Shown one piece after another: positions 40,533 to 63,354 of a DNA stretch of 64,000 nucleotides (position 1 is its first letter; each line of letters starts with the position of its first letter). The stretch spans positions 4,025 through 68,024 of the forward strand of contig DATJIU010000125.1 of assembly GCA_035492855.1 (NCBI GenBank), written 5' to 3'. The notes below the pieces were generated by a model, which saw only the letters and a list, made by a program, of their open reading frames with translations, did no database searches and was not told the origin of the DNA. This DNA is from Dongiaceae bacterium. GTDB taxonomy: Bacteria > Verrucomicrobiota > Verrucomicrobiia > Limisphaerales > JAFMIX01. The position numbers and the translations under genes were made by a program.

Positions 40533-41435
40533 CTACTGGTCCAGAGTGTTAAGCCACGCCGGTTTGGCCTGCCAGTAACCGTAGCTGAGATGCGGGTCGT
40601 TGTCGTTGTTCCAGCGGGCCCGCCAGAAGGCATTGTTGGGATCCCGCACATCGTTGCGCCGCGGGGTTTCCACGTGGCCGTCGCAGAACAGGACGTCGGT
40701 GCGGAAATTGTGCCGGTTGGCCGGGCAGGCGGAATGGCCGCTGACGGTTTTGACGTCCGCCGGTTCACAGTTGCCATTGAAGGACGGAGTCACATTTTTG
40801 GGCACGGAGGGCACATCACAAATCCAGATCATTTCCGTGGGCTTCCGGACGGTGCTGTCGCGGACAGGACCCTGGTACAGGCCGCCGTCAACATCGCCGC
40901 CCAGGCCGAGTTGGGGCCGGGTGATGACTTCGCTGCCGCCCTGGAAATGAATGCCCCAGTCATTGTAGCCCAGACCAAAGTATGATCGGGAGGTGATCGC
41001 ATAAGCGTCGGCGACCCCGCCCGGCCCGGTGCCGCCCAGCGAAGGGTTGGCGTTGGTGTCCCATGCGGTCCAAGGTTGCGCGGCGGGACAGGTGAAGGCC
41101 TTGCGGGCGCCGCCCATGAGGTTGAACAACCGCACCGGCCAGACATAGTAGTAGTTGGCTGAACCGCCGGCCGGAGTGGAGAGACAACCCGGATACGCGC
41201 CGTTGTCGCCGATGTACATGACCCCGGCGATGCCAATCTGCCGCATGTTGTTCACGCACGAAATTTGCTTGGCCCGGGCCTTGGCCTTGGTCAGCGCTGG
41301 GAGCAGCAGGCCGGCCAGAATGGCGATGATGGCGATGACCACCAGCAGCTCGATGAGGGTGAAGCCGGTGGTGTTTTTGCGATTCGGCCGGAAGCCGGGT
41401 TGCTGAAATTTGCCAATGGACATGGGTGTTTGCAT
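40533..41435 (-). CDS. prepilin-type N-terminal cleavage/methylation domain protein with H-X9-DG motif (DUF1559-like)
   Basis: The track ORF is 40533..41525. I prefer the ATG at 41435 (or 41423). It carries [34 protein letters not shown]. The H-X9-DG motif is seen as [12 protein letters not shown]. Confidence 0.85.
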
Positions 41436-41570
41436 TTCGCTTTGGGATCTGCCCCGTTTCATTTCCGCAGGGTCATGCTTCGACAAAGCATGCCGCCGGA
41501 AGCTGAACGCGGGGGCGCTCCGCAATGTTTTGGATGATGAGACTACGCTACCTTGATTGCCGCCCGGTTG

Positions 41571-41597
41571 TCATGGCACATAAAACGGCCTCGCCAC
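41571..41597 (-). promoter_or_regulatory. conserved leader mini-ORF/box, copy 1 (GTG GCG AGG CCG TTT TAT GTG CCA TGA c; V-A-R-P-F-Y-V-P-stop)
   Basis: Read on the minus strand, 136 nt upstream of the prepilin-like gene start at 41435. It is enclosed by a 6-bp inverted repeat, gattgc ... gcaatc. See the first finding. Confidence 0.6.
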
Positions 41598-41756
41598 TGC
41601 AATCCGAAGTGCCACCAGGCGAGAACAGGTGCCGTCGCCGGAGAATTGCGGGCGGGCAAGGCGGAGGTTGATGCCGGGTCCAGCGGGTCAGCCAGGTTCC
41701 TACCCACTGGGGCAACGGGCCTGCAAGGCAAGCCAGGCAAGGGAGTGATACACACC

Positions 41757-41780
41757 ATGAGGCCACTTCATGTGCCATGA
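41757..41780 (+). promoter_or_regulatory. conserved leader mini-ORF/box, copy 2 (ATG AGG CCA CTT CAT GTG CCA TGA c; M-R-P-L-H-V-P-stop)
   Basis: On the plus strand, 340 nt upstream of the LamG giant gene. It is divergent from copy 1 in the same intergenic region. Confidence 0.6.
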
Positions 41781-42119
41781 CACCCACTACGGGTTCGGAT
41801 AGGCTGGAGATTACTAACCCCAGTTGACCGAGAGTATTGTTAATGAAATTTAACGCACTCAGGCTCTTCGGATTTGTTTCCGGGAGCTGTTTTATAATTT
41901 CGTCTTTTCTGACTGCGCCGGTCGTTCCTGCGGCGCTGACGCAGGCATGCCGTTTCAATGACGGCATCATAAGTAGCTCCCAGTTGACCTCGGGAGTGCC
42001 GCCGCCAGCAGCGGTATCCCAGAAGGTTTCCTCGCAGCAAAAGCCCGGCGGCTTAAGCCGGATTTGACATCATTTTAACCCACCATCCACAACTGAACCC
42101 GAACCACACCATAATCAAA

Positions 42120-44996
42120 ATGAAAACAGCAAAACGAATACAGCCGCAACTTGGCCGGGGCCTGGCCCGGGCTTTGGCGGGCGCACTCTTGGGCGCGCTG
42201 GTCGCCACCGCGAGTGCGCAAAACCTGACGCACCGCTGGAGTTTCAACGATGCCAGCGACTCGGTCGGCACGGCCAGCGTCTCGCTCACGGGCAATGCCA
42301 CGATTGACAGCGGAATGTTGAATGTTCCCGGCGGCGGCGGGGCCTCCGATTTTGGCTCGGTGGACATCTCGAGTGATTACACCAATTACACCAGCACCAC
42401 GATTGAATGCTGGTTTACGGAAACTTTCATCCAGGACTGGTCCAAGGTGTGGATGTTTGGCAATGGCGGCGTGAACGCCAATGCCGGTACCACCTATCAG
42501 GATTTCACGCCCAACCGCGGCAATGCGCAAGCCCCGGGGATTTCGATTACCCCGGCACCGTTTTCTGGCGGTGATTTTGCCGTTGCCGGGAGCGCCCAGC
42601 TTGCTGGGGGGGTCGAACACCATGCGGTGGCTGTGTATGATTACGGCGCCAACACCATGACGCTTTACGTTGACGGCGTATATAACTGTTCCGGCAGCAT
42701 GCAGAACACTCCCATCAGCGCCCTTAAGTCAACCCAGTTCCGCTTCGGCGCCGGGACCTCCTGGGGCGATACCAGCTTCAACGGCACCATTGACGAAATG
42801 CGCATATATGACGGACCGTTGACGCCGGTGCAGGCGGAAGCGGATTACGAAGCCGGCCCGGATACGATCAGTGCCGGTCCCGGCGCTTTGACCGCGATTC
42901 AATTTAACAATCCGGCTACAGTGATTGTCGGGGGCAAGTTCACTCCTGCAATTCTCGCGACCTATGCTGCTCTGACGAACAAGGTGGATGTCACCCGGAT
43001 GTCCGGCATTACATATTCGTCCGATGATACCAATGTGGTTAATTTCGGCACGGACGGCCTGTTCCATGCGGTGGCGGTCGGTAGCACCACGATTCATGCG
43101 GCGTTCCAGTCCCAGAACGCGGCCCTGGTCGTGCATGTGCAAACCGAACCCGCGGTGGTGGTCCATCGCTACAGCTTCGATGGCACCGCCGGCACCACGA
43201 CCATCACGGACTCGGTAGGAAATGCCGATGGCACGCTGAACAACGGTTCGGGCACGGCCACCCTCACCGGCACCGGTCAGTTGACGCTGGATGGCAATGC
43301 CAGCTCGGGCTACGTGTCGTTGCCGTCCGGCATTCTCGCCAACCTCACGAACGCCACCTTCCAGATCTGGGCGACCAACCTGGATGTGAATTCCGACTGG
43401 GCGGAATTATGGGCCTTTGGCACTAACAATGGATCCCAGGGCGTGGAATACATCGCCCTGATCCCGAACAATCCCAACAACCACACCATCCGGTTGGACG
43501 CCCATGGGGCCAATGGCTTCTCGTTTGATGCCCCGACGGCGATGGCTTTGAGCAATGTCTCCTGTGTAACGCTGACCTACAATTACTCGGCGCAGGTGGC
43601 GTCCATGTATGTAGATGGTCGCAAAGTGGCCACCTCCACTGCCGCCAAGGTGCTCTATACGATTCCAGATTCGAACAACTACCTCGGGCAGTCCGAATGG
43701 TACGGCAGTGGCGATCCCTATTTCACCGGCGTTATTGATGAGTTCCGCATTTACTCCGGGGTGGAATCGGAACTGCAAATCGCCATTGACGCGAAGGTCG
43801 GCCCGAACTCGGTGGTCACCAATGCCGGCGCGATGCAGTCGCTCACGGTGACCATGGATACTACAAATGTGGATGTCCGCGGACTGAACGTGCCCATCCG
43901 GGTGTTGGCGAACTTCGCCAATGTGAGCGGGGTGGATATCACCACCCTGCCGGAGACCTCGCTCAGCAGCAGCGCGCCGGACGTGGGCACGATTGTCAAC
44001 GGCACCTTTGCCCCGCAAAATGCCGGGACGACCACGGTGACGGCCAGTTATAACGGGGTTAACGGTTCCGTGGTGGTGAATGTGGTGGACACGAATGGTC
44101 CGCCGACGCTGCTGCATCATTATACCTTCAATGAAACCTCCGGGACCACCATCCATGATTCCGTGGGGACCATTGATGGCACTGTGAATGGCCCCGTGAC
44201 TTGGACCGGCACGCAAATGGTAATGCCGACGGCGAATCCCGCGCCGGATGGCAGCGGTCAGCCCACGGCCGCCAGTGGCTGGGTATCCTTCCCCGCGAAC
44301 GAGGGCTTGGTGACTGGATTGCCGAATGAAGCGAGCATTGAGTGCTGGGTGGTCTGGGCTGGCGGCGCGGTCTGGCAGGAAATGTTCGACTTTGGCCAGG
44401 CGGCCAATCCCGGCGTATCCACCGGCGGTGGCCAGTACGTGATGGTGAGCCCCCACGACGGGGCCAGCGGAGCGTTGCGGCTGGAATGGTTCCCCGGCGG
44501 ATTGGTGCTCACCGGACCTTCGCTCCAGCAAAATGTGCTGAGCCAGGTGGTCATCACGCACGATCAGGACCGCCAGTTGGACAAGCTCTACCTGAACGGC
44601 CAGTTGGTCGCTACGGGCAGCAACCCGCTGCTGTGGTCGAGCCTGCCGGATACGGACAACTGGCTGGCCCGCGACCAGTGGCCGGATGCCATGTTCAATG
44701 GCGCATATGCTGACCTGCGTTTCTGGGATGGCGCCCTGACCGCCGGTCAGGTGGCCAGTTCCTATGCCACGGGGCCGGAAACGATCGCCGGACCGGCGCT
44801 GCACATCACGGCTGCGGGCGGGCAAATTACGCTCACCTGGCCGGCCAGCGCCTCGGGCTTCAATCCGGAGTCCGCGACGGATCTGGTGAATGGTCCTTGG
44901 ACTGCGGTGTCGGGAACACCGACCGTGGTCAACGGTCAGAACGTGCTGACCGTGCCGGCAACGCAAAGCCGGACGTTCTACCGGCTGAAACAGTAA
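42120..44996 (+). CDS. secreted LamG/ConA-like triple-module protein with bacterial Ig-like (Big_2-like) domains (958 aa)
   Basis: The signal peptide is MKTAKRIQPQL...LVATASAQ. Three jelly-roll modules each open with H(R/H)(W/Y)(S/T)F(N/D), near nt 42231, 43164 and 44115. Each ends with IDE(M/F)RIY..., as in Laminin_G_3. Big_2-like inserts are present (VAVGSTTIHAAF, AGTTTVTASY). The C-terminal tail is TFYRLKQ. Confidence 0.8.
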   Translation: MKTAKRIQPQLGRGLARALAGALLGALVATASAQNLTHRWSFNDASDSVGTASVSLTGNATIDSGMLNVPGGGGASDFGSVDISSDYTNYTSTTIECWFTETFIQDWSKVWMFGNGGVNANAGTTYQDFTPNRGNAQAPGISITPAPFSGGDFAVAGSAQLAGGVEHHAVAVYDYGANTMTLYVDGVYNCSGSMQNTPISALKSTQFRFGAGTSWGDTSFNGTIDEMRIYDGPLTPVQAEADYEAGPDTISAGPGALTAIQFNNPATVIVGGKFTPAILATYAALTNKVDVTRMSGITYSSDDTNVVNFGTDGLFHAVAVGSTTIHAAFQSQNAALVVHVQTEPAVVVHRYSFDGTAGTTTITDSVGNADGTLNNGSGTATLTGTGQLTLDGNASSGYVSLPSGILANLTNATFQIWATNLDVNSDWAELWAFGTNNGSQGVEYIALIPNNPNNHTIRLDAHGANGFSFDAPTAMALSNVSCVTLTYNYSAQVASMYVDGRKVATSTAAKVLYTIPDSNNYLGQSEWYGSGDPYFTGVIDEFRIYSGVESELQIAIDAKVGPNSVVTNAGAMQSLTVTMDTTNVDVRGLNVPIRVLANFANVSGVDITTLPETSLSSSAPDVGTIVNGTFAPQNAGTTTVTASYNGVNGSVVVNVVDTNGPPTLLHHYTFNETSGTTIHDSVGTIDGTVNGPVTWTGTQMVMPTANPAPDGSGQPTAASGWVSFPANEGLVTGLPNEASIECWVVWAGGAVWQEMFDFGQAANPGVSTGGGQYVMVSPHDGASGALRLEWFPGGLVLTGPSLQQNVLSQVVITHDQDRQLDKLYLNGQLVATGSNPLLWSSLPDTDNWLARDQWPDAMFNGAYADLRFWDGALTAGQVASSYATGPETIAGPALHITAAGGQITLTWPASASGFNPESATDLVNGPWTAVSGTPTVVNGQNVLTVPATQSRTFYRLKQ

Positions 44997-45022
44997 CATC
45001 TTGCTGAGGGTATGCATCGGGG

Positions 45023-45057
45023 AAGGCTGGGCGCGGCAACGCGTCCAGCCTTTTTTT
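45023..45057 (+). terminator. strong rho-independent terminator after the LamG gene
   Basis: An 11-bp stem, ggctgggcgcg / cgcgtccagcc, with one G-U pair and loop gcaa. Seven T residues follow at 45051-45057. It lies inside the 5' extension of track ORF 45012..48365, which supports the ATG at 45126 as the true start of the kinase. Confidence 0.8.
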
Positions 45058-45125
45058 GCCGCCCGGAGCGCTGCCGGACAGATTCCGCTCGCCCCTGGGC
45101 GCGTGCCCCCCTTAAATTTGCCGGT

Positions 45126-48100
45126 ATGACGCCCGCCATCCGCGCCTGGTTTCAGGTTTTGCGCTGCTGCCTTGTGGCCAGCCTCGGGTGGGCGGCAACG
45201 GAACCGGTCCGGGCGCAGACCATGCCGCATACTTCGGCGGATTATCTCATCCACGTCTGGACTTCCGATGACGGCCTGCCGCAAAATTCCGTAAACTGCC
45301 TCGCGCAGACGCCCGACGGCTACCTCTGGATCGGCACCCGCAGCGGCGGGCTGGCACGGTTCGATGGCGCCAATTTTGTCACCTTCAATCCGCAGTCCAC
45401 TCCCGGCCTGCGCGATGTGGAAATCGAAACGTTGAGTGTGGATTCGCAGGGCACGATGTGGATTGCCGCGGGCAACGAATCCATCACCAGTCTGACGCTG
45501 GGAAAATTCCGGCTCGTCCGCGAACCCAATGCCGCGCCGCGGTGGCATCCCCTGCAAATTCCCATCGTGGCCGAGGATGCCGGGGCGGTCTATTTCGCCG
45601 CCTACGGCAACGCGGTGTTTCGCGTGCCCCGGCATGGCGAGGTGAATGCCGCCCAGCACATTGACCTCGTGCCGCCCCCGCCCGACCCGCCGCCGGGCCA
45701 GTTCAGCCGGGCGCCCGATGGCACCCTGTGGTATGTCACCGAAAACTATGACATTGCGCGGATGCAATTCACCTCACCGAGCAGCGCCCAGTTCAGCGTG
45801 TTCCATCCCGGGGTGCCGGTACAGGAACTCGTTCGGGATGCCACGGGCCAGATTTGGGGCATCGAGGGCAATCGCGTCGGCATTGTGACGCCTGCGGGCT
45901 TCACCGATCACACCCCGACCAACGGACCCGCCCCGCAGGATGTCCGGCAGATTATTCCCGCCCGGGATGGCGGTCTGTGGATTTGGGACGGCAACGAACT
46001 GCGGAAAATGTCCGCCGGGCAGTGGTGTTTGACCGCCGCCCACTTTCACCCGCCGCATGACCGGGAGTCACTGCATTTTACGGCGGATTCCCAGGGAGGC
46101 CTGTGGGTTATAGAATATGGCACCGGCCTGTGGCACGTGGCGCCGGACGGCAAGACCGACCTGCTGACGCCGGAAAACGGCCTGCCCAGCAAGTTCATCA
46201 CCTGCTGCATGGAGGACTACGAGGGCAACATCTGGATTGGCACCAAAGAGGCGGGCCTGGCGCGGATTCGCCGCCGGCTGTTCAAGGTGTTCACCGCGGC
46301 CGATGGCATTCCCGGGGATGTCGCCCAATCCGTTTGCGAAGACGAGCAGCATACCATCTGGGTGGGCACCGCCACCGGAGGGCTGGCGCGCAAAACGGGA
46401 GACAAGTTTGAATCCATCCCGCTCACGCCCAACCCCGACCCGTTGATTGAGAGTGTCACCGTCTGTCCCGATGCCGTCAACGGCATCTGGGTGGGCACGC
46501 TACAGGGCCGGATTTTCCGGGTCGTGAGCAATGAAGTCCAAAACGTGAATGACACCACGGCCTGGTCCTTTCCGCTGGAGCGGCTGCGCGACCACGTGGC
46601 GAATGCCATGATGCAGGACAGCAGCGGCCGGGTGTGGTTCTCCAACGGCTCGGGGGCGTATTATTATCAGAACGGTACCTTTTCGGCGTTCGACAACACC
46701 CGCGGTTTTGTAACCGGGATCGGGGTTCGGGCTATTGCCGAGGGGCCGCGGGGCACCCTTTGGTTTGGCACCGAGCCGGGCGACCTCTGGCAGTTTAACA
46801 AAGACCTGCCGGCCCGGCACCATCAGCCGGCCGACTGGCCGAACGCTCGCGTGGCGGCGCTGTTGCCCGACGCGGATGGCAGCGTGTGGGTGGGGACGTT
46901 GGGGGGCGGTCTGCTCCATTTTGCGAACGGTACGTTTACCCGCATCACCACCGCCCAGGGCCTGCCTGACAATAGTATCACCCAGTTGCTCGAAGACCAG
47001 GACGGTTATCTCTGGGGCGGGACATATGCGGGAATTTTCCGTGCAGCCAAAAAAGACTTGAAGAACCTGGCTGCAGGCAAGGCGGACGAGATTTCCGTTT
47101 CCGTGTATGGGCGCTTCGACGGGCTCCCGGCGCAATCGTATTCCGGCTGGTTTCAACCTTCGTGTTGGCGCTCGCACGACGGCTGGCTGTGGTTCACCAC
47201 GGTGAAAGGCCTCGTGGCCGTCAGTCCGCAGGATGTGACGGTGAATCATCGGCCGCCGCCCGTGATTGTCGAGGAGATGCGGGTGGACAGCGTGCCGCGC
47301 GACCTGGAGGGTTATGAAATGGCCGCCACCAATACGGTGCTGCAACTCGGACCAGGCCGGCATTATGTGGAGTTCCGGTTCACCGGCATTGATTTCAACG
47401 AGCCGGACCAGGTGCGGTTCAAATGGCGGCTGGAGGGCGTGGAAAAAGAGTGGCGCGAAGGTGTAAACCGTCGCGTGGTGAGTTACGGGCCGCTCCTGCC
47501 GGGCAATTATTGTTTCCGCGTGCTGGCCGCCAACAGCGACGGCGTGTGGAACAAGATCGGCGCCAGCGTGGCGTTTGAGGTGCTGCCGTTCTTCTGGGAG
47601 ACCTGGTGGTTCAAGGCATTCCTGATTGCCGCCAGTTGCGGTGGCCTGGCCCTGGCGGTGACGCTCGGTTTGCGCCGCCGGCACCGGCTGGAACTCGAAC
47701 GCCTGGAACGCCGGCATGAGATGGAGCGTGAACGCACGCGCATTGCCCGCGACATGCACGATGAAATCGGCTCCAAGCTGGCGCGCATTTCCTTCCTGAG
47801 CGAAATCGTCAAGAGCGAGGCCCGGAGTGCCAGCGCGGCGGACGGGGTGGTGGATTCGCTGTCCCGCACGGCGCGTGACCTGTTGCTGTCGCTGGACCGG
47901 ATGCTCTGGGCGGTGAATCCCCGCAACGACTCGCTGGAAAAGCTCTCCGCGTATTTGAACCGTTACGCCGCAGAATATTTTCAGAGCACCTCGATCCGGT
48001 GCCGGCTGGCGTTTCCGGGGAATTTGCCGGCCATCCCGCTCTCCGCCGAAATGCGGCATAACATTTTTCTCGCCTTTGAGGAGGCGCTGGCCAACACCCT

Positions 48101-48365
48101 CAAGCATGCCGGCGCCACCGAGGTCAGTGCTGAACTGGTCTGCCACAACGGCACCGTGGAAATTTCCATCGCCGATAACGGCCGGGGCTTTGATGTGCCC
48201 GCGCGCACTGCGGCCATCCAGCCCGAAGCCGGCGAGCATCTGGGACTTTCCGGTATGCACCACCGCTTGCAATTGCTCGGCGGAACGTGTCACATCACCA
48301 GTACACCCGGCGGTGGCACCCTGGTCAGATTCGTGTTGCCCCTCCATACCACCCATGCCCAATAA
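45126..48365 (+). CDS. sensor histidine kinase with periplasmic beta-propeller (Reg_prop) repeats and Y_Y_Y domain; HisKA_3 + HATPase_c
   Basis: The signal/TM region is MTPAIRAWFQVLRCCLVASLGW. Many repeats of the type GLPqNsV..l.qD..G.lWiGT are present. A Y_Y_Y-like block (LGPGRHYVEFRF, YGPLLPGNYCFRV) is followed by a TM helix. The H-box is ERERTRIARDMHDEIGSKL. The ATPase region has LANTLKHAGA, DNGRGFD and GLSGMHHRLQLLGG. Confidence 0.85.
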   Translation: MTPAIRAWFQVLRCCLVASLGWAATEPVRAQTMPHTSADYLIHVWTSDDGLPQNSVNCLAQTPDGYLWIGTRSGGLARFDGANFVTFNPQSTPGLRDVEIETLSVDSQGTMWIAAGNESITSLTLGKFRLVREPNAAPRWHPLQIPIVAEDAGAVYFAAYGNAVFRVPRHGEVNAAQHIDLVPPPPDPPPGQFSRAPDGTLWYVTENYDIARMQFTSPSSAQFSVFHPGVPVQELVRDATGQIWGIEGNRVGIVTPAGFTDHTPTNGPAPQDVRQIIPARDGGLWIWDGNELRKMSAGQWCLTAAHFHPPHDRESLHFTADSQGGLWVIEYGTGLWHVAPDGKTDLLTPENGLPSKFITCCMEDYEGNIWIGTKEAGLARIRRRLFKVFTAADGIPGDVAQSVCEDEQHTIWVGTATGGLARKTGDKFESIPLTPNPDPLIESVTVCPDAVNGIWVGTLQGRIFRVVSNEVQNVNDTTAWSFPLERLRDHVANAMMQDSSGRVWFSNGSGAYYYQNGTFSAFDNTRGFVTGIGVRAIAEGPRGTLWFGTEPGDLWQFNKDLPARHHQPADWPNARVAALLPDADGSVWVGTLGGGLLHFANGTFTRITTAQGLPDNSITQLLEDQDGYLWGGTYAGIFRAAKKDLKNLAAGKADEISVSVYGRFDGLPAQSYSGWFQPSCWRSHDGWLWFTTVKGLVAVSPQDVTVNHRPPPVIVEEMRVDSVPRDLEGYEMAATNTVLQLGPGRHYVEFRFTGIDFNEPDQVRFKWRLEGVEKEWREGVNRRVVSYGPLLPGNYCFRVLAANSDGVWNKIGASVAFEVLPFFWETWWFKAFLIAASCGGLALAVTLGLRRRHRLELERLERRHEMERERTRIARDMHDEIGSKLARISFLSEIVKSEARSASAADGVVDSLSRTARDLLLSLDRMLWAVNPRNDSLEKLSAYLNRYAAEYFQSTSIRCRLAFPGNLPAIPLSAEMRHNIFLAFEEALANTLKHAGATEVSAELVCHNGTVEISIADNGRGFDVPARTAAIQPEAGEHLGLSGMHHRLQLLGGTCHITSTPGGGTLVRFVLPLHTTHAQ

Positions 48366-49002
48366 ATCCATTACTTTCGCCATTGTGGACGATGACGCCG
48401 GCTTGCGGGACAGCATCGTCCGGTATCTCACAGTCAAAGGCGGGTTCGTTTGTGTCGGCCAGTACGGCAGCGCGCAGGAGGCGCTGGTCGGCCTGCCGGA
48501 CGCCCGGTCTACCGTGGTGCTCATGGACATTAAAATGAAAGGCATGGATGGCATTGAGTGCGTTCGCCGGCTCAAGGAGACCATGCCGGACGTGCTCGTC
48601 ATCATGCTCACCGTGTTTGAAGACGAGGATCTCATTTTTGACGCGCTGATGGCCGGCGCCATGGGCTATTTGCTCAAGCGCCAACCGCCCGGGCAACTGC
48701 TCGACGCCATTCATGAATTGCTGGATGGCGGTTCGCCGATGTCGGCCACCATTGCACGCAAAGTGGTGAAGCTGCTGCAACGCTCCGGCGATCCCGGCAA
48801 GCCCAGCAGTGGCACCCGCATGTTGTTGTCCGACCGCCAGCGGGAAATGCTCGATTTGCTGGCCGCCGGGGAGCCGTACAAAGCCATCGCGGACAAAATG
48901 GGACTGAGCATCCACACCGTCCGGGGGTATATCCGGCGCATCTATGAAAAACTCCAGGTGCACACTCGCACGGAGGCGGTGGCCAAGTACCTGCAGCGGT
49001 GA
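48355..49002 (+). CDS. NarL/LuxR-family response regulator
   Basis: The track ORF is 48076..49002. The ATG at 48355 overlaps the kinase stop by 11 nt. The receiver domain has ITFAIVDDDAGLRDSI, VVLMDIKMKGMDGIE and VIMLTVFEDEDLIFDALMAGAMGYLLK. The LuxR HTH is LSDRQREMLDLLAAGEPYKAIADKMGLSIHTVRGYIRRIYEKLQVHTRTEAV. Confidence 0.9.
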   Translation: MPNKSITFAIVDDDAGLRDSIVRYLTVKGGFVCVGQYGSAQEALVGLPDARSTVVLMDIKMKGMDGIECVRRLKETMPDVLVIMLTVFEDEDLIFDALMAGAMGYLLKRQPPGQLLDAIHELLDGGSPMSATIARKVVKLLQRSGDPGKPSSGTRMLLSDRQREMLDLLAAGEPYKAIADKMGLSIHTVRGYIRRIYEKLQVHTRTEAVAKYLQR

Positions 49003-49024
49003 GCTTTTACCTGGTCGCCCGGCA

Positions 49025-49048
49025 ATGAGGCCATTCTATGCTCCATGA
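49025..49048 (+). promoter_or_regulatory. conserved leader mini-ORF/box, copy 3 (ATG AGG CCA TTC TAT GCT CCA TGA c; M-R-P-F-Y-A-P-stop)
   Basis: It lies 80 nt upstream of the ATG at 49128. It is enclosed by a perfect 9-bp inverted repeat, cccggcaat (49018-49026) and attgccggg (49052-49060), which would pair the first two bases (AT) of the mini-ORF start codon. Confidence 0.6.
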
Positions 49049-49127
49049 CAAATTGCCGGGACTGCGGATATTCTAAATGCTTGCCTCCCTGCCAGTGAGA
49101 CAAGGTTGGAATGTGCAATTTGTAGCA

Positions 49128-52100
49128 ATGCGTTTTTTGATGGCGTTTGGATCACCGAATTTATTTCACTCCGTTGAAAATCGGCCGCAGTCACCCGGGG
49201 CGCGGCCTTTATTCTGCTGGACCCTTTGCCTGACTGTTGGAATTTTGCTGGCGGCCTGCGGGGTCCGGGCCGATTCCTACTGGCAGGGTGGCACCGGCGA
49301 TTTCAATGTTGCCGCTTCCTGGATTCCTTCTGGCGTGCCCGGCGGGGTCAATGCCATCAATGACAGTGGCTCGAACAATGTGGTGCTCATTCATTCGGGT
49401 GACCCGGCCTGGAGTCCGTGGGACATTCGGGCAGGCGATGGCAGCGGCACTTCCGGTTCATACTTGCAAACCGGCGATACGGTTACGGTGAACGGTTGGT
49501 TTCGCCTGGGTGACAGCGCCAGTGCCACCGGCTATTACACCCTGAGCAACGGCGTGGTGAACGTGGCATTGCAGGCACACGTGGGCGAAGCAGGTGTCGG
49601 CGTGCTGAATATCAATGGTGGCACGTTCAATGTGGGGCAAACTCCGTTTTGTCTCGGCGATGGCGATTTTGGCGCTGGTGGCAGCGGTACGGTGTTTGTG
49701 AATGGCGGCGCACTCAACACTCCCGTGGGAGTGGATGTCTGGATCGGTGAAGGCCATAACGGCGGGGCAGGCGGCAATGGCAGGATGGTTGTCACCAGTG
49801 GCACGGTGAGCATCGGCGGTTGGCTGGCGGTGGGACGTTTTGGCGGCAACGGTGACCTGGAAATCTCCGGCGGCAGCCTCACCCTGCTTCCCGGCAATAC
49901 TGGTAATCTCACCCTGGCTACGACGCCGAGCGTCGGAGTGGTGAAACAAAGCGGCGGGGCATTGACCAACACCGCCTCACAAACCTGGGTGGCCGAAAGC
50001 GCCACGGGGTCCTGGACTTTGAGCGGCGGCGTCGATGTGCTGGGCGATGTGTTGCTGACCCGCCTAGCCGGAGCCACCGGCACGTTCAACCTGAACGGCG
50101 GCGACTTGTATGTTTCGCAGATCGCAGATCCGGGCGGCAATGGTACATTTAATTTTAATGGCGGCCGACTTCATGCCCGTGCCGCCACGGACGATTTCTT
50201 ACAGGCCCATCACGGCATCAATGTGCAGGGCGGTGGCGCCATAATTGATTCCGCCGGGTACGACCTCACCATCACGGGAGCCATGGCCAATGGCGGTGGC
50301 GGGTTGACCAAGCTGGGGGCGGGCACACTGACGTTGTCCGGCAATCTCGCTTATTCCGGCGGCACTATCGTGAGCAATGGTACGCTGACAATTTCCGCGC
50401 CCAACGCCTTTGCCTCGTCCGGTTGCCTCGTTTCCGGTGGCACGGCCTTTGGCGTAAAACTCGCCTCGGCCAACGCCCAATTATTTGTTCCCGTGTTGAA
50501 TCTAGCCGCCACCGGCACGGGCTTGAACTTCGATTATGCCGGCGCCGGGGGTCAGTCTCTGGCGCCGCTTCGGGTCAGCTCGTTGACCGTCAGCGGTCCG
50601 GTCAGGGTTAATGTGGCGGGTTACAATTTTTCGCCCGGCCAATTTCCGCTGCTGCAATATGTCACGCGCACCGGCGGCGGCAGCTTTACCCTCGGCACTG
50701 TGCCGGCCGGAATGACGGCGCAACTGGTGACCAACGCAGCGAACAAATCCATTGATCTGCTCGTCACCACTGCCGCAACCGGAGGCATGCCATGGGAGTC
50801 CAAGCAGGCTCCGTTGATGACCGACTGGGCCCAAGAGGTGAACCACACCAGCACACTGCCCGAATATCCGCGCCCGCAAATGGTGCGTTCCAATTGGCTG
50901 AATTTGAACGGAGTCTGGCAGTTTCAGCCCGGGGCCACGAACGACGCCGTGCCGGCCGGGCAGAATCTGGTGGGGGTTATTCTGGTGCCATTTCCGATGG
51001 AGTCGGCGCTCTCCGGCGTCATGCAGTACCATCCGTTCTCGTGGTATCGCCGGCAGTTCACCGTACCGCCGGGTTGGACGGGGCAGCGCATTCTGTTGCA
51101 CTTTGATGCGGTCACCTGGCGGTCGCAAATCTACATTAACGGGCAGAGCGTCGGCGCGCATACTGGCGGATACAACCCCTTCAACTTTGACATCACGCCG
51201 TATCTCAACGGCGGCACCAATGAACTGCTCGTGCAGGTGTATAGTCCGCAGGACAGCGGCGGCCAGCCGCGCGGCAAGCAGACGCTGTACCCGGGCGGCA
51301 TCATGTTTACCTCGGCCTCCGGCATCTGGCAGCCGGTGTGGTTGGAGCCGGTGCCCGCCACCCGCATCAGCAACCTGCATCTCACGCCAGACATTGATAA
51401 CCACCGGCTGCTCGTGAACGTGGCCATCACGGGGCCCAGCGCCGGTTTGCAGGTACGGGGCGTGGCATTGGATGGCACCAATGTGCTGGCCACCACCACC
51501 GTGCTGCCCGGCAACAACCTCTATCTCAACATTCCGGCACCGCAACTGTGGTCGCCCACCAATCCCTATCTCTACAATTTGCAAATTTCCCTAACGAGCA
51601 ACTCGGTGCCGGTGGACAATGTGGGCAGTTATTTTGGCATGCGCAAAATCAGCCTCGGGGTCACCAACGGCTTCACCAAATTGTTTTTGAACAACCAATT
51701 TCAATTCGAATTTGGTCCATTGGATCAGGGATTCTGGCCGGATGGCGTTTATACCGCGCCCACCGACCGCGCCCTGCGGAGCGATTTGGAAATGGAAAAA
51801 GCGCTCGGTTTCAACATGGTGCGCAAGCACATCAAGGTGGAGCCGCAACGTTGGTATTATTGGGCCGATCACGTGGGGATTTTGGTCTGGCAGGACATGC
51901 CCAGTTGCAATTCCTACACGGCCAACCCCGCGCCGCCGCCGGTGGATCCTGCGGATTATGTTGGTGAACTCTCCGCCATGGTCACGAATCATTGGAACAG
52001 CCCGGCCATCATTTCCTGGGTGGTGTTCAATGAGGGGCAGGGACAGAGCGGTACTGGCAATGGGGTGGGCCAGACCAACACCGCGTACTTGGTTTCCCTG

Positions 52101-53039
52101 GTCAAGAGTTTGGATCCCACCCGTCTCGCCAATGAGGCCAGCGGCTGGAATCATGTGGGGGCGGGCGACGTGCTGGATTACCATAATTATCCCGACCCGG
52201 TCGCACCGGTGAGTGCAAATCAAGCGGTGGCCTGCGGGGAATTTGGCGGCGTGTGGCAGGGCATCACTGGCCACACCTGGACACCGGGCACGGGCGAAGT
52301 TAGTCCGGCACAGGCATCCGGTTCCGTGGCCGGCCAATTTGAAGCCCTGGCCAATGAACTCCCGGATTTGATTCAAAATCATGGCCTGAGCGCGGCGGTT
52401 TACACGGAAATCAGCGATGTGGAAATCGAACTCGCCGGCTTGCGCACGTATGACCGCCGGGTCCTCAAGCCCGACTTGCTCCGGATGCAAAAGGCGATCA
52501 CGGCATTGACCGGCGGGCCATTGCCCACCAACCGGCCGCCGGTGATTTTGCCGGTCCCGAGTGCTTTTATCACTGCCGGCCAGACTTTGCAGCTGACCAA
52601 CCGCGCCACCGATAGTGATTTGCCCGCGCAAACATTGACGTGGAGCTTGGGCACACATCCCGCTGGAGCCGCTTTGGACGCCACCACCGGGGTGCTCACC
52701 TGGCGTGCCACCATTGCGCAGTCGCCTTCCACCAATTCTTTTCAGGTGACGGTTACGGATGACGGCATTCCGGTCCGGAACGCCACCCAAAGTTTTTTTG
52801 TCATCGTCCGGCAGCCAGCGGCGCCGGAGTTATCCGCGCCAATCTGGACGGCGGGACAATTTGAAATGTCCGTCGGTGGCGACGCCGGGCCGGATTATTC
52901 CATTTACACCACCACGAATCTGACCGGGCCGTGGCAGTTGCTGTTGAGCACCAACCCGGCGGTATTGCCGTTTCAATTCATGGATCCGGACTCGGGTGAA
53001 TTCTCCCAACGCTTTTATCGGGTGGTGTTGGGTCCGTGA
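49128..53039 (+). CDS. giant secreted protein: autotransporter-associated beta-strand repeats + GH2-family glycosidase + cadherin-like module
   Basis: The track ORF is 49077..53039, and the ATG at 49128 is a plausible start. The N-terminal roughly 480 aa have repeats of the type GGTLTLSGN..YSGGT.V..GTL. The GH2 blocks are ILLHFDAVTWRSQIYINGQSVGAHTGGYNPFNFDIT, GIWQPVWLE, NMVRKHIKVEP and IISWVVFNEGQGQ. A cadherin-like module (ATDSDLPAQTLTWSL) follows. The tail is RFYRVVLGP. Confidence 0.8.
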   Translation: MRFLMAFGSPNLFHSVENRPQSPGARPLFCWTLCLTVGILLAACGVRADSYWQGGTGDFNVAASWIPSGVPGGVNAINDSGSNNVVLIHSGDPAWSPWDIRAGDGSGTSGSYLQTGDTVTVNGWFRLGDSASATGYYTLSNGVVNVALQAHVGEAGVGVLNINGGTFNVGQTPFCLGDGDFGAGGSGTVFVNGGALNTPVGVDVWIGEGHNGGAGGNGRMVVTSGTVSIGGWLAVGRFGGNGDLEISGGSLTLLPGNTGNLTLATTPSVGVVKQSGGALTNTASQTWVAESATGSWTLSGGVDVLGDVLLTRLAGATGTFNLNGGDLYVSQIADPGGNGTFNFNGGRLHARAATDDFLQAHHGINVQGGGAIIDSAGYDLTITGAMANGGGGLTKLGAGTLTLSGNLAYSGGTIVSNGTLTISAPNAFASSGCLVSGGTAFGVKLASANAQLFVPVLNLAATGTGLNFDYAGAGGQSLAPLRVSSLTVSGPVRVNVAGYNFSPGQFPLLQYVTRTGGGSFTLGTVPAGMTAQLVTNAANKSIDLLVTTAATGGMPWESKQAPLMTDWAQEVNHTSTLPEYPRPQMVRSNWLNLNGVWQFQPGATNDAVPAGQNLVGVILVPFPMESALSGVMQYHPFSWYRRQFTVPPGWTGQRILLHFDAVTWRSQIYINGQSVGAHTGGYNPFNFDITPYLNGGTNELLVQVYSPQDSGGQPRGKQTLYPGGIMFTSASGIWQPVWLEPVPATRISNLHLTPDIDNHRLLVNVAITGPSAGLQVRGVALDGTNVLATTTVLPGNNLYLNIPAPQLWSPTNPYLYNLQISLTSNSVPVDNVGSYFGMRKISLGVTNGFTKLFLNNQFQFEFGPLDQGFWPDGVYTAPTDRALRSDLEMEKALGFNMVRKHIKVEPQRWYYWADHVGILVWQDMPSCNSYTANPAPPPVDPADYVGELSAMVTNHWNSPAIISWVVFNEGQGQSGTGNGVGQTNTAYLVSLVKSLDPTRLANEASGWNHVGAGDVLDYHNYPDPVAPVSANQAVACGEFGGVWQGITGHTWTPGTGEVSPAQASGSVAGQFEALANELPDLIQNHGLSAAVYTEISDVEIELAGLRTYDRRVLKPDLLRMQKAITALTGGPLPTNRPPVILPVPSAFITAGQTLQLTNRATDSDLPAQTLTWSLGTHPAGAALDATTGVLTWRATIAQSPSTNSFQVTVTDDGIPVRNATQSFFVIVRQPAAPELSAPIWTAGQFEMSVGGDAGPDYSIYTTTNLTGPWQLLLSTNPAVLPFQFMDPDSGEFSQRFYRVVLGP

Positions 53040-53071
53040 ATAATATCGGAGTCCAACCTGTCAGGAGAAAA

Positions 53072-54085
53072 ATGAACAAAAACTGTACGCTGTTGTTGAT
53101 GCTGACCGCCGCCATTGCGGGCCTGTTTTTCACCCCGGCGCCCGCCGCCGAACCGCCGGCCGGTTTTTTTCAAAATCCCATCAACCCCGGCCCGGATCCC
53201 TGGATGGTTTATTACCAGGGCAACTACTATCTCTCCACCACGCAGGGCAGTGCCATCCGCCTCTGGAAGTCGCCCACGCTGTCCGGCCTGAAAACCGTCG
53301 CGCCGGTCACCGTATGGAGCGATACCAACGCCACGCGTTCCGCTTTGGTCTGGGCGCCGGAACTCCATTTTTTCAATGACCGCTGGTATCTCTATTATAC
53401 CGCCACCTCCAGTGACAAAGTGGATGCCAATCACCGTACGTTTGTGCTGGAGAGCGCCGGCATGGATCCACTAGGGCCCTATGAATTCAAGGCGCGCCTG
53501 TTCAATCCCACCAACGACCAATACGCGATTGACCCCACCGTGTTCAAGAATCAGGCCGACGGTGCGCTCTATTTTCTTTGGGCCGCCCGGCCTGGCCACG
53601 TCTTGTATATTGCGCGCCTGACGAATCCCTGGACCGTTGCAGGCAACGGGGTCTATCTTCCCGCGGATGGTTTCGGCTGCACGGAAGTCCGGGAGGGGCC
53701 GGAAATTCTCCAACATAACGGAAAGATTTTTCTCATTTACTCTGCCTGCGACACCGGCAAGCCGGACTACAAACTGGGCATGCTGATGGCTGACGCCAAG
53801 GCTGACCTGCTCGATCCCCATTCGTGGAAGCAATATCCGCAACCGGTCTTTGAACGTAATGACGCCAATGGGGTGTATGGTCCGGGACACAACGGGTTTT
53901 TCCATTCTCCCGATGGCAAGGAAGACTGGATCGTTTACCACGGCAAAACCACCTCCGCTTACACCTACGCCGGCCGTACCACCCGTGCGCAGAAATTCAC
54001 TTGGAATCCTGACGGCATGCCCAATTTCGGCGTGCCGCTGCCGCTTGACACCGTGCTGGCAGAACCGTCCGGCACCGGCAAATGA
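53072..54085 (+). CDS. glycoside hydrolase family 43 protein
   Basis: The track ORF is 53036..54085. The ATG at 53072 is preceded by aggag and gives the signal peptide MNKNCTLLLMLTAAIAGLFF. The GH43 pattern is NPGPDPWMVYYQGNYYL, VWAPELHFFNDRWYLYYTA, YAIDPTVF and EVREGPEIL. Confidence 0.85.
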   Translation: MNKNCTLLLMLTAAIAGLFFTPAPAAEPPAGFFQNPINPGPDPWMVYYQGNYYLSTTQGSAIRLWKSPTLSGLKTVAPVTVWSDTNATRSALVWAPELHFFNDRWYLYYTATSSDKVDANHRTFVLESAGMDPLGPYEFKARLFNPTNDQYAIDPTVFKNQADGALYFLWAARPGHVLYIARLTNPWTVAGNGVYLPADGFGCTEVREGPEILQHNGKIFLIYSACDTGKPDYKLGMLMADAKADLLDPHSWKQYPQPVFERNDANGVYGPGHNGFFHSPDGKEDWIVYHGKTTSAYTYAGRTTRAQKFTWNPDGMPNFGVPLPLDTVLAEPSGTGK

Positions 54086-54128
54086 ACCGGCAACACCTCC
54101 CTCGACTCCACACTATAAATTTGCGACC

Positions 54129-55154
54129 ATGAAAAAAATACTGGGCATTGTCTCGGGCATACTCACCGGCATTTTGATGATGGCTTCGGCCCGCGCCCAG
54201 ATGCCCGATCCTCCGGGACAGGTGGCACCCGGCGAGACGCCCAAATACGAGGCCTATCTTTTCGCCCACATGATGGAGGGCGATTATGGCCGGCTTTATT
54301 ATAGCGTCAGCCTGGATGGCTTGCACTGGCAAAGCCTCAATGGCGGGAAGCGGGTTTTTAACGAATACCACGGCCACTCCAGCATCTGCAAAGGTCCCGA
54401 TGGCCGGTACTATCTGGTGGGCAATCGCGGCGATGACGCCCCGGACATCAATTTCTGGGTGTCGGATGATTTGATCACCTGGAAAAAATTCAGCGACTTC
54501 ACCCCGGATATCAAACATGTGCCGGATTATCCCAAGGCCCTCGCCCGCATTGGCGCGCCCAAGCTGTACTACGACCAGGCCAGTCAGCAATTTCTTCTCA
54601 CGTGGCACACCCCGCATGATCTCGGCAAGACCGACCTGCCAGAACCCTACTGGGCCAGCCAGCGCACCCTGTACGTCACCTCCAAGGATTTGCAAACCTT
54701 CACGCAACCGCCCCACAAATTCTTCCGCTGGGACCTGGCCACCATTGATGTGATGGTGCAGAAAGAGAACGGCGAGTATTACGCCATCGTCAAGGATGAG
54801 CGGTATCCCACGCTCGACTGGCCGACCGGCAAGACCATCCGCATTTGCAAGGCGGGCAAGTTACTGGGACGCTATTCCAAACCGGGGCCGCCAATCAGTC
54901 CCAATTTTCGCGAGGCGCCCACGGTCATTCCTTCGCCCAACGGCAAGGTTTGGTATCTATATTACGAACAATATCCCGGTGTGGCTTATGGGCTTTCCGT
55001 AGCGGCCAAACTGGACGGCCCGTGGTATCAGGTGGCCGGCAATCAGCGCCCGGAATGGGATAAATATTACGTCACGCCCCACGCGCGGCACGGCTGCATG
55101 CTGCCCATCTCCCGCGCACAATATGATGCTTTGGTAACCGCTTTTGGCAAATGA
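54129..55154 (+). CDS. secreted five-bladed-propeller-like glycoside hydrolase family protein (GH43/GH117-like, uncertain)
   Basis: The track ORF is 53850..55154. The ATG at 54129 gives the signal peptide MKKILGIVSGILTGILMMASARAQ. Propeller-like strands are seen (YLFAHMM, LYYSVSLDGLHW, GAPKLYYD, FREAPTV). The family assignment is tentative. Confidence 0.5.
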   Translation: MKKILGIVSGILTGILMMASARAQMPDPPGQVAPGETPKYEAYLFAHMMEGDYGRLYYSVSLDGLHWQSLNGGKRVFNEYHGHSSICKGPDGRYYLVGNRGDDAPDINFWVSDDLITWKKFSDFTPDIKHVPDYPKALARIGAPKLYYDQASQQFLLTWHTPHDLGKTDLPEPYWASQRTLYVTSKDLQTFTQPPHKFFRWDLATIDVMVQKENGEYYAIVKDERYPTLDWPTGKTIRICKAGKLLGRYSKPGPPISPNFREAPTVIPSPNGKVWYLYYEQYPGVAYGLSVAAKLDGPWYQVAGNQRPEWDKYYVTPHARHGCMLPISRAQYDALVTAFGK

Positions 55155-55177
55155 CTCGCCACCTGACTGGAAAGGCA

Positions 55178-55201
55178 ATGAGGCCATTTTATGTCCCATG
55201 A
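55178..55201 (+). promoter_or_regulatory. conserved leader mini-ORF/box, copy 4 (ATG AGG CCA TTT TAT GTC CCA TGA c; M-R-P-F-Y-V-P-stop)
   Basis: It lies 191 nt upstream of the GH-A gene start at 55392. It is flanked by gactgg ... ccggtc, a 6-bp stem with one G-U pair. Confidence 0.6.
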
Positions 55202-55391
55202 CGTCCGGTCGGAAATTTTCAATACTGGGGCCAATGCATTCCCTGCTTTGAAAGTGTGCCGGAAGCGAACCTTTATGGGAAGGTGGCCGGTTGCGCCCGG
55301 AGCGGGTGGCCGCTAAAACGTGGGTGCCGACAAATTTATTTTTCTTTCGCACTGCCGCATAACCGGCGTATCACAAATCCTGTAATTATTT

Positions 55392-56594
55392 ATGAAGCGT
55401 TCTCTTGGCATCCTTTCCGCCGGTCTTTTGCTTTGTGGCCAGATTGTCGCGGCTGAGCCCGCCGCCGCTCCGGCTCGTTGGTCCGTGGAAAGGGCGAATG
55501 CCTGGTATGCCGCCCAGCCCTGGCTGGTGGGCGCCAACTTTGTGCCCAGCACGGCCATCAACCAGCTCGAAATGTGGCAAGCTGACACTTTTGACCCCGC
55601 CACCATTGACCGCGAACTCGGTTACGCCCAGAGCATCGGCATGAACACCATGCGCGTGTTTTTGCACGACATTCCTTGGCGCGAGGATGCCGCTGGTTAT
55701 TTCCAACGGATTGACCAGTTCCTCACCATCTGTGACCGCCACCAGATCCGGCCGTTGTTTGTCATATTCGATGGGGTGTGGAATCCCTATCCCAAGCCGG
55801 GACCGCAACCGGCTCCCGTGCCCGGCCTGCACAACTCCGGTTGGATGCAGTCGCCCGGACGGGAAATCCTGGCTGACCCCGCCAAGCAGGAAGCGCTGAA
55901 ACCTTACGTGGTAGCGCTGCTTACCCGTTATAAAAATGATCCGCGCGTGTTGGCGTGGGATTTGTTCAACGAACCCGACAACCCCAACCGCCAGGCATAT
56001 GGTCGCGACGGCGCCAATACCGAATTGCCCGAGCCCGAAAAAGAAAAGGTTGCCACGGAACTGCTGCGCAAGACCTTTGCCTGGGCGCGCGAAGTCGGTC
56101 CGTCCCAGCCGGTCACTGCCGGGGTATGGCTGGGCGATTACCTCGACCATCCCACGGAATTGCAGGCGCTCTGCCTGAATGAGTCGGATGTCATTTCCTA
56201 TCACAATTACGACGCGCCCGAAGAAATGCGCAGACGCATCGTCGGCCTGGAAAAATTGGGCCGGCCGGTCATTTGCACCGAGTACATGGCGCGCGGCAAT
56301 AACTCCACCTTTGCCGGTATCTTGCCCATCCTCAAGGCTCATCATGTGGGCGCGTATAATTGGGGCCTCGTGGACGGCAAATCGCAGACCATCTACCCGT
56401 GGGATTCCTGGCAGAAACATTACACCAATGAACCGGCCGTGTGGTTTCACGATGTCTTCCGTCCCGACGGCCGGCCTTTCTCCATTGCGGAGGTGACTTT
56501 GATCCGCCAGTTGACGGGGCGCGGCGATGCCACACCCAAGTTGTCCACTGCGGCCAGCCCCGCTACTGCCGCGGCTCCGGCCACTCCCAATTAA
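55392..56594 (+). CDS. clan GH-A (GH5-like) TIM-barrel glycoside hydrolase
   Basis: A 400-aa ORF with a signal peptide. It has WLVGANFVPSTAINQLEMW. The acid/base NEP motif appears in AWDLFNEPDNP and the nucleophile context in PVICTEYMARG. Confidence 0.65.
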   Translation: MKRSLGILSAGLLLCGQIVAAEPAAAPARWSVERANAWYAAQPWLVGANFVPSTAINQLEMWQADTFDPATIDRELGYAQSIGMNTMRVFLHDIPWREDAAGYFQRIDQFLTICDRHQIRPLFVIFDGVWNPYPKPGPQPAPVPGLHNSGWMQSPGREILADPAKQEALKPYVVALLTRYKNDPRVLAWDLFNEPDNPNRQAYGRDGANTELPEPEKEKVATELLRKTFAWAREVGPSQPVTAGVWLGDYLDHPTELQALCLNESDVISYHNYDAPEEMRRRIVGLEKLGRPVICTEYMARGNNSTFAGILPILKAHHVGAYNWGLVDGKSQTIYPWDSWQKHYTNEPAVWFHDVFRPDGRPFSIAEVTLIRQLTGRGDATPKLSTAASPATAAAPATPN

Positions 56595-56808
56595 TTTTGG
56601 GGAGATTGGTCAGAGGCGCTGCCCCCTTCGCTCCACCGATCCGGCGTCTCTCACGCCATTTCAACCGTGCCCTGAACCGGGCAAACCACGCGTGCCCGCT
56701 GGCCCGGATTTTGCGGGTCACGAGCATTCCAGTTGTCATGCCGAGAAATGGGGTTACCATCGAAGTCATTGGCAACCCCGACCGAGGCCCATTTGCGCTG
56801 GACCGTTG

Positions 56809-62514: not shown

Positions 62515-63354
62515 ATGTCTAAAATACCGTTTGAAATCCGATGCGGAGCCCGCGGCCGGGGTAACCTAAAGGCCTTTACCCTCATTGAATTGCTCGTGGT
62601 TATTGCCATCATCGCCATTCTGGCGGGATTGCTGTTGCCCGCCTTGTCCAAGGCCAAGGAAAAAGCCACCGGCATCAGTTGCGTGAACAACCTCAAGCAG
62701 CTGACGCTGGCCGCCGTGCTGTATGCCGGCGATTACAACGATGCCATCCCGCCCAACTTCCTGGGCAGTCCCAACGCCTGGGTTTCGGGCGATGTCAGCC
62801 AGTTGCCGGGCGCCACGAATGTGACCGACATCCGGAAGGCGGTCCTGTTTCCCTACAACAAGTCCGAGGCCATCTACCAGTGTCCCGGCGACAAGTTTGG
62901 GCTCAACGGCGCGAGCGTGCCGCGGGTGCGCAGCTATTCCATGAGCGGCATGATGGGCTGGAACGGCGGCGTCAAATACGGGGTGCATGACAGCCTCATG
63001 GAGAACAAAAAATTCAGCGATGTGCACAACCCCAATCCCTCGGAGGCCATTTTTTTCGTGGATGAGCAATCCAATCCGGTGCGGGACCTGTGCAGCATCG
63101 ACGACGGTTATTTCGCGATCAACCTGACCGGGCTGCGCTATTACTGGCGCAATATTCCCGCCAGCCGGCATGGCAATTTCGGGCTGTTCTCGTATGCCGA
63201 CGGGCACGCCGACAAGATAAAATGGCTTGAGGGCAAAACCCGCTCGTTGAAATTCAACGCCGGCGGGCAACCGACCGGCACCATCGGCACCGCCCCCAAC
63301 GACCGGGATTACCGCCAGTTGTGGATGTCCATTTATCCGGCCAGCATGTGGTGA
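62515..63354 (+). CDS. prepilin-type N-terminal cleavage/methylation domain protein with H-X9-DG motif (DUF1559-like)
   Basis: A 279-aa ORF carrying [33 protein letters not shown]. The H-X9-DG motif is seen as [12 protein letters not shown]. Confidence 0.85.

Follow-up and report, generated by a model that had tools for sequence, protein, structure and literature searches.

A conserved 25-bp box upstream of four transcription units in a Verrucomicrobiia glycan-degradation locus: a probable operator of the NarL/LuxR-type regulator encoded there

A 25-bp box upstream of four transcription units

We analysed a 64,000-nt stretch of contig DATJIU010000125.1 (assembly GCA_035492855.1, positions 4,025 to 68,024; hereafter the window), which GTDB places in the Limisphaerales of the Verrucomicrobiia and which carries a glycan-degradation locus with a 25-bp element repeated upstream of four of its transcription units. 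An earlier note on this DNA had read the element as a mini open reading frame (ORF) encoding a regulatory leader peptide or as a leader RNA, and had named a DNA operator for the LuxR-type regulator of the locus as the alternative. Our results favour this alternative. Promoter geometry, nucleotide-level conservation and co-occurrence with the regulator gene suggest, with a probability of roughly 0.75, that the element is a 25-bp operator of the NarL/LuxR-type regulator of the locus, which overlaps the -35 hexamer and serves to activate a local regulon of four promoters.

The pattern AGGCCNYTYYATGYNCCATGAC has exactly four matches in the window, at 41570-41591 on the minus strand and at 41760-41781, 49028-49049 and 55181-55202 on the plus strand; dinucleotide-preserving shuffles gave no match at up to two mismatches and a mean of 0.05 at three. 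When the extended 25-mer consensus was scanned over the same 64 kb, these four sites showed 0-1 mismatches and the next-best match at least 7, so that no further copy below 7 mismatches was seen, including upstream of 58484 and 62515. The shuffles and the 25-mer scan together establish the repeat as genuine, well above chance expectation, and as present in the window in four copies only. Its fourfold occurrence, its intergenic placement and its orientation toward the next gene had been described correctly, and Pfam assigns the genes concerned to N_methyl/DUF1559, LamG, PATR plus GH2 and TIM-barrel glycoside hydrolase (GH) proteins. The length of about 24 nt given previously was too short, as the conserved stretch runs over 25 bp from T-1/G0 to A23, with the consensus TGAGGCCAYTTYATGYNCCATGACA, also written TGAGGCCAYTTYATGYNCC-ATGACA. 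The ATGA motifs, formerly said to recur 21 nt apart, are spaced by 20 nt.

Box D (41569..41593, minus strand) has the sequence cGAGGCCGTTTTATGTGCC-ATGACA, with the -35-like ATGACA at 41569-41574, and faces the gene of a protein with a prepilin-type N_methyl and a DUF1559 domain (40533-41435, minus strand). Box L (41758..41782, plus strand; TGAGGCCACTTCATGTGCC-ATGACA, hexamer at 41777-41782) precedes the gene of a LamG-repeat protein (42120-44996), the first of a putative autoregulated operon that continues with a sensor histidine kinase (45012-48365) and a response regulator (48355-49002), the start of which overlaps the end of the kinase gene; all three lie on the plus strand. Boxes D and L together form a 27-nt inverted repeat with 166 nt separating the arms. 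Box G (49026..49050, plus strand; ATGACA at 49045-49050) begins 24 nt past the stop codon of the regulator and stands before the putative operon of a PATR-GH2 gene (49128-53039), a GH43 gene (53036-54085) and a GH43-related gene that ends at 55154 and has an uncertain start, all on the plus strand. Box T (55179..55203, plus strand; ATGACG at 55198-55203) precedes a gene for a GH5-like TIM-barrel hydrolase (55392-56594, plus strand).

The box in orthologous loci

The strict pattern was scanned once over 185,579 species genomes and returned 35 stretches. With the exception of five (L015, L024, L028, L033, L035), all of them lie in metagenome-assembled genomes of soil Verrucomicrobiia/Limisphaerales, and tblastn searches with the window proteins showed that these represent one syntenic locus, with identities from 52-60% for the LamG protein to 82-90% for the regulator. 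The five outlying stretches, from Desulfococcus, Fimbriimonadales, Gluconobacter (twice) and Oscillospiraceae, contained no syntenic genes and were taken as chance matches, since about 9 of these are estimated for a collection of such size. Each genome carried the strict motif at one locus only, in neighbouring 8-kb blocks of one contig; on a 3.3-Mb contig the motif was confined to 1.400-1.416 Mb and on a 485-kb contig to 80-104 kb. A genome-wide association of the motif with carbohydrate-active enzyme genes, for which a test had been proposed, was thus not observed.

To these loci we added a sample that was independent of the motif. Homologues of the regulator were searched for, and seven long contigs around orthologues of 82-86% identity were retrieved. 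Every expected promoter in the seven loci carried the box, with at most 4 mismatches in 25 positions. Taken together, the syntenic locus is represented by about 13 GTDB species and the 7 loci found through the regulator protein, that is by about 20 loci with the same four promoters, which supplied 72 sites in four orthologous classes (19 of class D, 20 of L, 16 of G and 17 of T).

Rearranged loci show how box and genes travel. In L036 (10666-20648) and L039 (10682-20648), the DUF1559-LamG-kinase-regulator core is kept and unrelated genes stand in place of the GH2, GH43 and GH5-like genes; boxes G and T are gone along with the GH genes, and the D/L pair is retained. Box L of these two loci and of L042 reads GGGCC...CCAAGACA. 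In DASZLX the GH2 gene has been lost and box G stands before the next gene. The GH5-like gene is inverted in DASZLX and DASTXC53, and box T moves with it in the same relative orientation. In JBBCGE010000003.1 (L005, ~4069-5139), box D is intact before a divergent DUF1559 paralogue of 36-44% identity, as against 66-79% elsewhere.

Several carriers bear odd taxonomic labels. The regulator of the window (P0001) is listed at NCBI under 'Dongiaceae bacterium', two contigs (CAYTJG010000256.1 and CAYTJG010000050.1, loci L018 and L020) under 'Bifidobacteriaceae', and the orthologue P0035 under 'Candidatus Acidoferrales', while every other carrier is assigned to Verrucomicrobiia. These labels likely stem from mis-binned contigs.

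Position of the box relative to the predicted promoters

Downstream of the box, ATGACN is followed after 16-18 nt by a hexamer with A at its second and T at its sixth position in 41 of 46 sites, compared with 13.7% for positions drawn at random and with 1-15 of 46 when the search is shifted around the same sites. The 46 sites are orthologous sets and not independent draws, and the unconserved sequence between the hexamers serves as an internal control. Past the box, positions 42 (A) and 46 (T) are conserved, and the other flanking positions carry close to zero information. A generic consensus promoter scan independently gave ATGACA-16-GATATT and ATGACA-18-TATTCT at 49045-49074. In the window, the predicted -10 hexamers are TAGCGT at 41545..41550 (minus strand, 18-nt spacer) for the DUF1559 promoter, TAGGCT at 41800..41805 (plus strand, 17-nt spacer) for the LamG operon and AATACT at 55221..55226 (plus strand, 17-nt spacer) for the GH5-like gene. 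For the GH2 operon, the predicted -10 region at 49067..49074 (plus strand) offers either GATATT with a 16-nt spacer or TATTCT with an 18-nt spacer.

The 3′ hexamer of the box would accordingly supply the -35 of a sigma-70-type promoter. If positions 41-46 form the -10, transcription is expected to start near position 53, and the box would extend from about -54 to -30 with its centre at about -42, a fixed position overlapping the -35 as in class II activation. On this geometry the box would be left untranscribed from its own promoter. For class L, box position 1 and the ATG of the LamG gene are separated by 68-88 nt in 16 of 17 loci, which would give the transcript a leader of a sensible 15-35 nt. 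Divergent D and L boxes start 19-22 bp apart in five loci (CAWJTA, DASZLX, DASTXC45, DATAZE, L037), which leaves no room for a promoter upstream of either box.

Two further features of these promoters were recorded. The LamG leader of the window (41813-42119) is about 290 nt longer than in 16 of 17 orthologues, with 360 nt between box and ATG vs. 68-88 nt. The additional DNA holds an ORF of 74-76 aa (41837/41843-42067, plus strand) with a hydrophobic, signal-peptide-like N-terminus and without a Pfam match. Besides, a third conserved promoter feature, a GGAAAA/GAAAA-like A-tract, occurs about 8-13 nt after ATGACA (about -22 to -17, motif positions ~31-36) with 0.5-0.84 bits per position. Among loci L001-L042 it is found in classes D, G and T and not at that position in class L; in the window it lies at 41560-41553 (minus strand), 49060-49066 and 55211-55216 (both plus strand). 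It could be a second protein contact or an element that affects spacer shape.

Candidate binding protein and proposed regulon

Among the proteins of the conserved block, the response regulator, with a REC and a GerE domain (NarL/LuxR-type helix-turn-helix, HTH), alone is of a DNA-binding type, and none is better conserved (82-90% identity). Fourteen orthologues share the HTH segment GLSIHTVRGYIRR without a change, and of the proteins with solved structures, DevR, VraR, NarL and DesR match the regulator best. In all loci studied with a contig that reaches the regulator, its gene is accompanied by the box, irrespective of whether the locus was ascertained through the box or through the protein, and this includes all seven loci found via the regulator. 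We consider this co-conserved protein the probable binder of the box.

The kinase combines Reg_prop beta-propeller repeats (E=4e-45) and a Y_Y_Y domain (E=4.6e-12) with HisKA_3 and HATPase_c domains, and its gene is syntenic in all loci. We propose that the periplasmic beta-propeller/Y_Y_Y part senses a glycan fragment and that the kinase then phosphorylates the regulator, which would bind the box and, like a class II activator, stimulate RNA polymerase at four promoters. Its targets would be the DUF1559 pseudopilin-like gene, the LamG-kinase-regulator operon, the GH2-GH43 operon and the GH5-like hydrolase gene. Box L, placed at the operon of the regulator itself, may provide positive autoregulation. 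The weak -10 hexamers TAGGCT, AATACT and TAGCGT suggest activator-dependent promoters, and for this reason activation is favoured over repression.

Several points weigh against the operator and its activating role. The promoter assignment is predicted from consensus geometry. Boxes G and T lie 24 nt past upstream stop codons and no terminator was found, so both may be transcribed within read-through mRNA. The 72 sites amount to four orthologous sets, and p-values computed on them thus overstate independence. Many GerE-type regulators bind inverted repeats, and the box lacks clear dyad symmetry: a comparison of TGAGGCCAYTTYATGYNCCATGACA with its reverse complement revealed no significant dyad, and what symmetry there is lies in CCAY cores at a distance of 12 bp and in short CATG palindromes. 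A convincing half-site architecture for the regulator could not be derived from the box. The near-consensus -35 inside the box and the candidates for binding that are encoded elsewhere, both discussed below, add to this side.

Alternative readings of the operator

The same box might serve as a repressor operator, with the regulator, phosphorylated or not, occluding the -35 until the signal relieves repression. Some GerE-family proteins do repress from positions that overlap the -35, and here a bound protein would overlap the sigma contact at an ATGACA that matches the consensus in 5 of 6 positions. We nevertheless regard repression as unlikely. The -10 hexamers match in only 3-4 of 6 positions, so that the promoters would be poor even when free, and the conserved box reaches 18 bp upstream of the -35, with a centre (~-42) at the classical position of a class II activator. 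Furthermore, glycan loci under two-component control are normally regulated positively (PMC3243724).

Slightly less likely still is recognition of the box by a factor from outside the conserved block, such as an alternative sigma factor (extracytoplasmic function (ECF) type or sigma-54) or an unlinked transcription factor. The reverse complement of the box contains TGGCAC, which resembles a sigma-54 -24 element, and the window encodes an ECF-type sigma factor (23523-24848), an AraC-type regulator and a MarR regulator. These three genes are, however, more than 15 kb away, the flanks of the block differ between species, and it is the NarL-type regulator that accompanies the box in every locus examined. 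As for the particular candidates, a sigma-54 promoter on the reverse strand was rejected, as its GG-to-GC spacing would be 11 and not 10 and it would point away from the class G and T genes; Pfam and synteny showed no enhancer-binding protein or AAA+ activator encoded in the locus. An ECF-type -35/-10 pair made of the two box halves was likewise discarded, because the gap of about 12 nt is too short for a sigma-70-family factor.

Readings as a leader peptide or leader RNA

The earlier note had interpreted the element as a 7-8 codon upstream ORF, M-R-P-F/L-Y/H-V/A-P-stop, translated in the 5′ leader, where ribosome stalling at Pro-UGA would control the genes that follow. All four window copies can indeed be read as NTG...CCA TGA, and the description of an invariant CCA-TGA-C, a start codon and flanking inverted repeats holds inside the window. 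It fails in the orthologues. The triplet before AGG is ATG, GTG or TTG in 49 of the 53 sites of classes L, G and T, but in none of the 19 of class D, which leaves 49 of 72 overall; the other non-start triplets are CTG (twice, in L041 and CAYTJG256), GTC (once) and TAG (once, directly adjacent, in class G of L040). In-frame starts upstream of the class D sites are 2-28 codons off and unconserved, and one site has a TAG two codons upstream. TGA is kept in 68 of 72 sites, being replaced by AGA in class L of L036, L039 and L042 (CCA AGA CA) and by TTA in class G of L042 (ATTACG), and the terminal Pro has become Ser (CCA to TCA) in three sites. The sites that lose TGA or Pro are otherwise intact boxes. 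Among the 24 sites found via the regulator, start, seven codons and TGA are all kept in 11. Shine-Dalgarno-like sequences were seen upstream of only 4 sites out of 49, and information is absent from positions -19 to -3.

A leader peptide would show conservation at the level of codons, and what we observed is conservation of nucleotides. Across the 72 sites, positions 3, 12 and 18, which would be third codon positions, are invariant (72/72), although position 18 would be four-fold degenerate; at four-fold sites of the genes nearby, counted in conserved codons, agreement with the window is only 39-48%. Positions 7, 10 and 14, which would be first or second codon positions, vary freely. Fixed synonymous and varying non-synonymous positions argue that selection acts on the nucleotides and not on a peptide. 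In addition, the predicted -10 hexamer lies downstream of the supposed ORF, with transcription predicted to start about 30 nt after the TGA and not upstream of the element as a leader would need, and the closely spaced divergent boxes leave no upstream promoter space. Boxes G and T, which may lie in read-through transcripts, would be open to translation. None of the three marks of an arrest peptide, namely a start with a ribosome-binding site, a stop with the preceding Pro, and codon-level conservation, was found throughout the orthologous sites. Two of the refuting conditions set out in the earlier note apply: relatives retain the nucleotide sequence while losing start or stop, and transcription is predicted to begin downstream of the element. 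We thus consider the Pro-UGA leader-peptide family largely refuted and its probability very low. The ORF-like look would be a by-product of the box sequence, which opens with RTG and closes with ATGACA.

We give equally little credence to a second, RNA-level role for boxes G and T, in which the mini-ORF would be translated in read-through mRNA and tune re-initiation or polarity into the hydrolase genes, besides the function of the box as a DNA operator. The NTG...CCA-UGA mini-ORF is intact in nearly all class T sites.

Least probable of all is a structured cis-regulatory leader RNA, in which the 25 nt and their flanking repeats would form an RNA switch or a protein-binding hairpin in the 5′ untranslated region: the perfect 9-bp inverted repeat cccggcaat/attgccggg around copy 3, reported previously and confirmed in the window, and the 6-bp one around copy 1 speak for it, but in 49 orthologous sites the longest flank complementarity averages 4.08 nt vs. 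3.79 nt in shuffles, that is shuffle level, an RNAalifold consensus over 71 sites has one 4-bp stem and an energy of -0.21 kcal/mol, minimum free energy z-scores of the sites average -0.07, Rfam yields no relevant gathering-score match over the whole window and none at E<=1 over 41000-56000, and transcription would start downstream of the box. By these tests we detected no conserved secondary structure, covariation or described RNA family, and the conserved stem suggested earlier dissolves in the orthologues.

Comparison with known systems

With the operator as the preferred reading, the closest likeness is to class II activation by LuxR. The lux box measures 20 bp and has its centre at -42.5 (PMC3376562). 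The box described here resembles it in its length (~20-25 bp), its overlap with the -35, its centre at about -42 and a candidate binder with a GerE/LuxR-type HTH. It differs in symmetry and in its binder: an acyl-homoserine-lactone receptor recognises the inverted repeat of the lux box, whereas our box is asymmetric and its putative binder is a response regulator presumably controlled by phosphorylation. The REC plus GerE architecture is common to the NarL/FixJ family, to which the NarL heptamers and the DevR/DosR and VraR/LiaR boxes belong, and NarL/FixJ-type systems typically have a local regulon with autoregulation of their own operon, as proposed here. The box, to our knowledge, matches none of the NarL, DevR/DosR or VraR/LiaR consensus sites, and unlike the operators of that family it has no evident 7-2-7 or palindromic arrangement. 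The sensors differ as well, nitrate, redox or cell-wall sensors in the NarL/FixJ family and a beta-propeller/Y_Y_Y kinase here.

On the side of the signal, the nearest relatives are the hybrid two-component systems (HTCS) of Bacteroidetes. In Bacteroides, the oligosaccharide that induces a polysaccharide utilisation locus is bound by a periplasmic sensor of Reg_prop repeats and a YYY domain (PMC3243724). Both systems share this sensor type, and HTCS exert dedicated positive control over a glycoside-hydrolase locus next to them (PMC3243724), as is proposed here. HTCS are, however, single polypeptides with a receiver and an AraC HTH, whereas here a HisKA_3 kinase that ends in HATPase_c is split from a separate NarL-type regulator. 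No SusC/SusD pair was matched among the locus genes; LamG and DUF1559/N_methyl proteins belong to the putative regulon instead. Apart from the work on Bacteroides HTCS, our literature search on DUF1559 and Reg_prop/Y_Y_Y/HisKA_3 returned no account of such regulons. The likeness to TnaC-type arrest peptides, short ORFs that end in Pro-UGA upstream of catabolic genes, is superficial and limited to the window: in contrast to TnaC, start, stop and Pro are unconserved, a ribosome-binding site is missing, and the element lies upstream of the predicted transcription start.

The element is of an ordinary kind, a two-component operator with a local regulon, in an unstudied lineage. We know of essentially no characterised transcriptional regulation in uncultured soil Verrucomicrobiia of the Limisphaerales-like type, and the box with its four promoters offers a testable cis-element and regulon for a glycan-degradation locus of these bacteria. 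It would also place an HTCS-type sensor (Reg_prop/YYY) outside Bacteroidetes, in the form of a split kinase and NarL-type regulator with a recognisable operator. The DUF1559 prepilin-like protein and the LamG protein would make up the invariant core of a glycan-responsive regulon, and this would link them to glycan degradation by regulation. DUF1559 is greatly expanded in Planctomycetes and Verrucomicrobia, and its membership in the regulon therefore provides a lead on its function. The case also calls for caution, as a promoter box that starts with RTG and ends in a -35-like ATGACA can mimic a conserved mini-ORF.

Other genes of the window

Further prepilin-type N_methyl genes are present at 62515-63354 (plus strand), 5850-6830 (plus strand) and 22669-23445 (minus strand), and one of them also encodes DUF1559. 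In the 25-mer scan no box was found at these three genes, and a single member of this expanded family therefore appears to belong to the regulon. A second HisKA_3/HATPase_c kinase (56527-58296, plus strand) directly follows and overlaps the GH5-like gene, with no response regulator adjoining. It is absent from the orthologous loci that were fetched, and might pass an additional signal to the same regulator.

The ECF-type sigma factor mentioned above (23523-24848, minus strand; Sigma70_r2/r4) adjoins one of the N_methyl genes and is fused to a 3-keto-disaccharide hydrolase-like domain. This unusual fusion is unrelated to the box. A tRNA gene at 28469-28542 (minus strand) is the sole gathering-level Rfam match in the window. 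Finally, the region 7083-15122 (plus strand) encodes a protein of 2679 aa with six Lamin Tail Domains, a CotH kinase-like domain and Ig domains.

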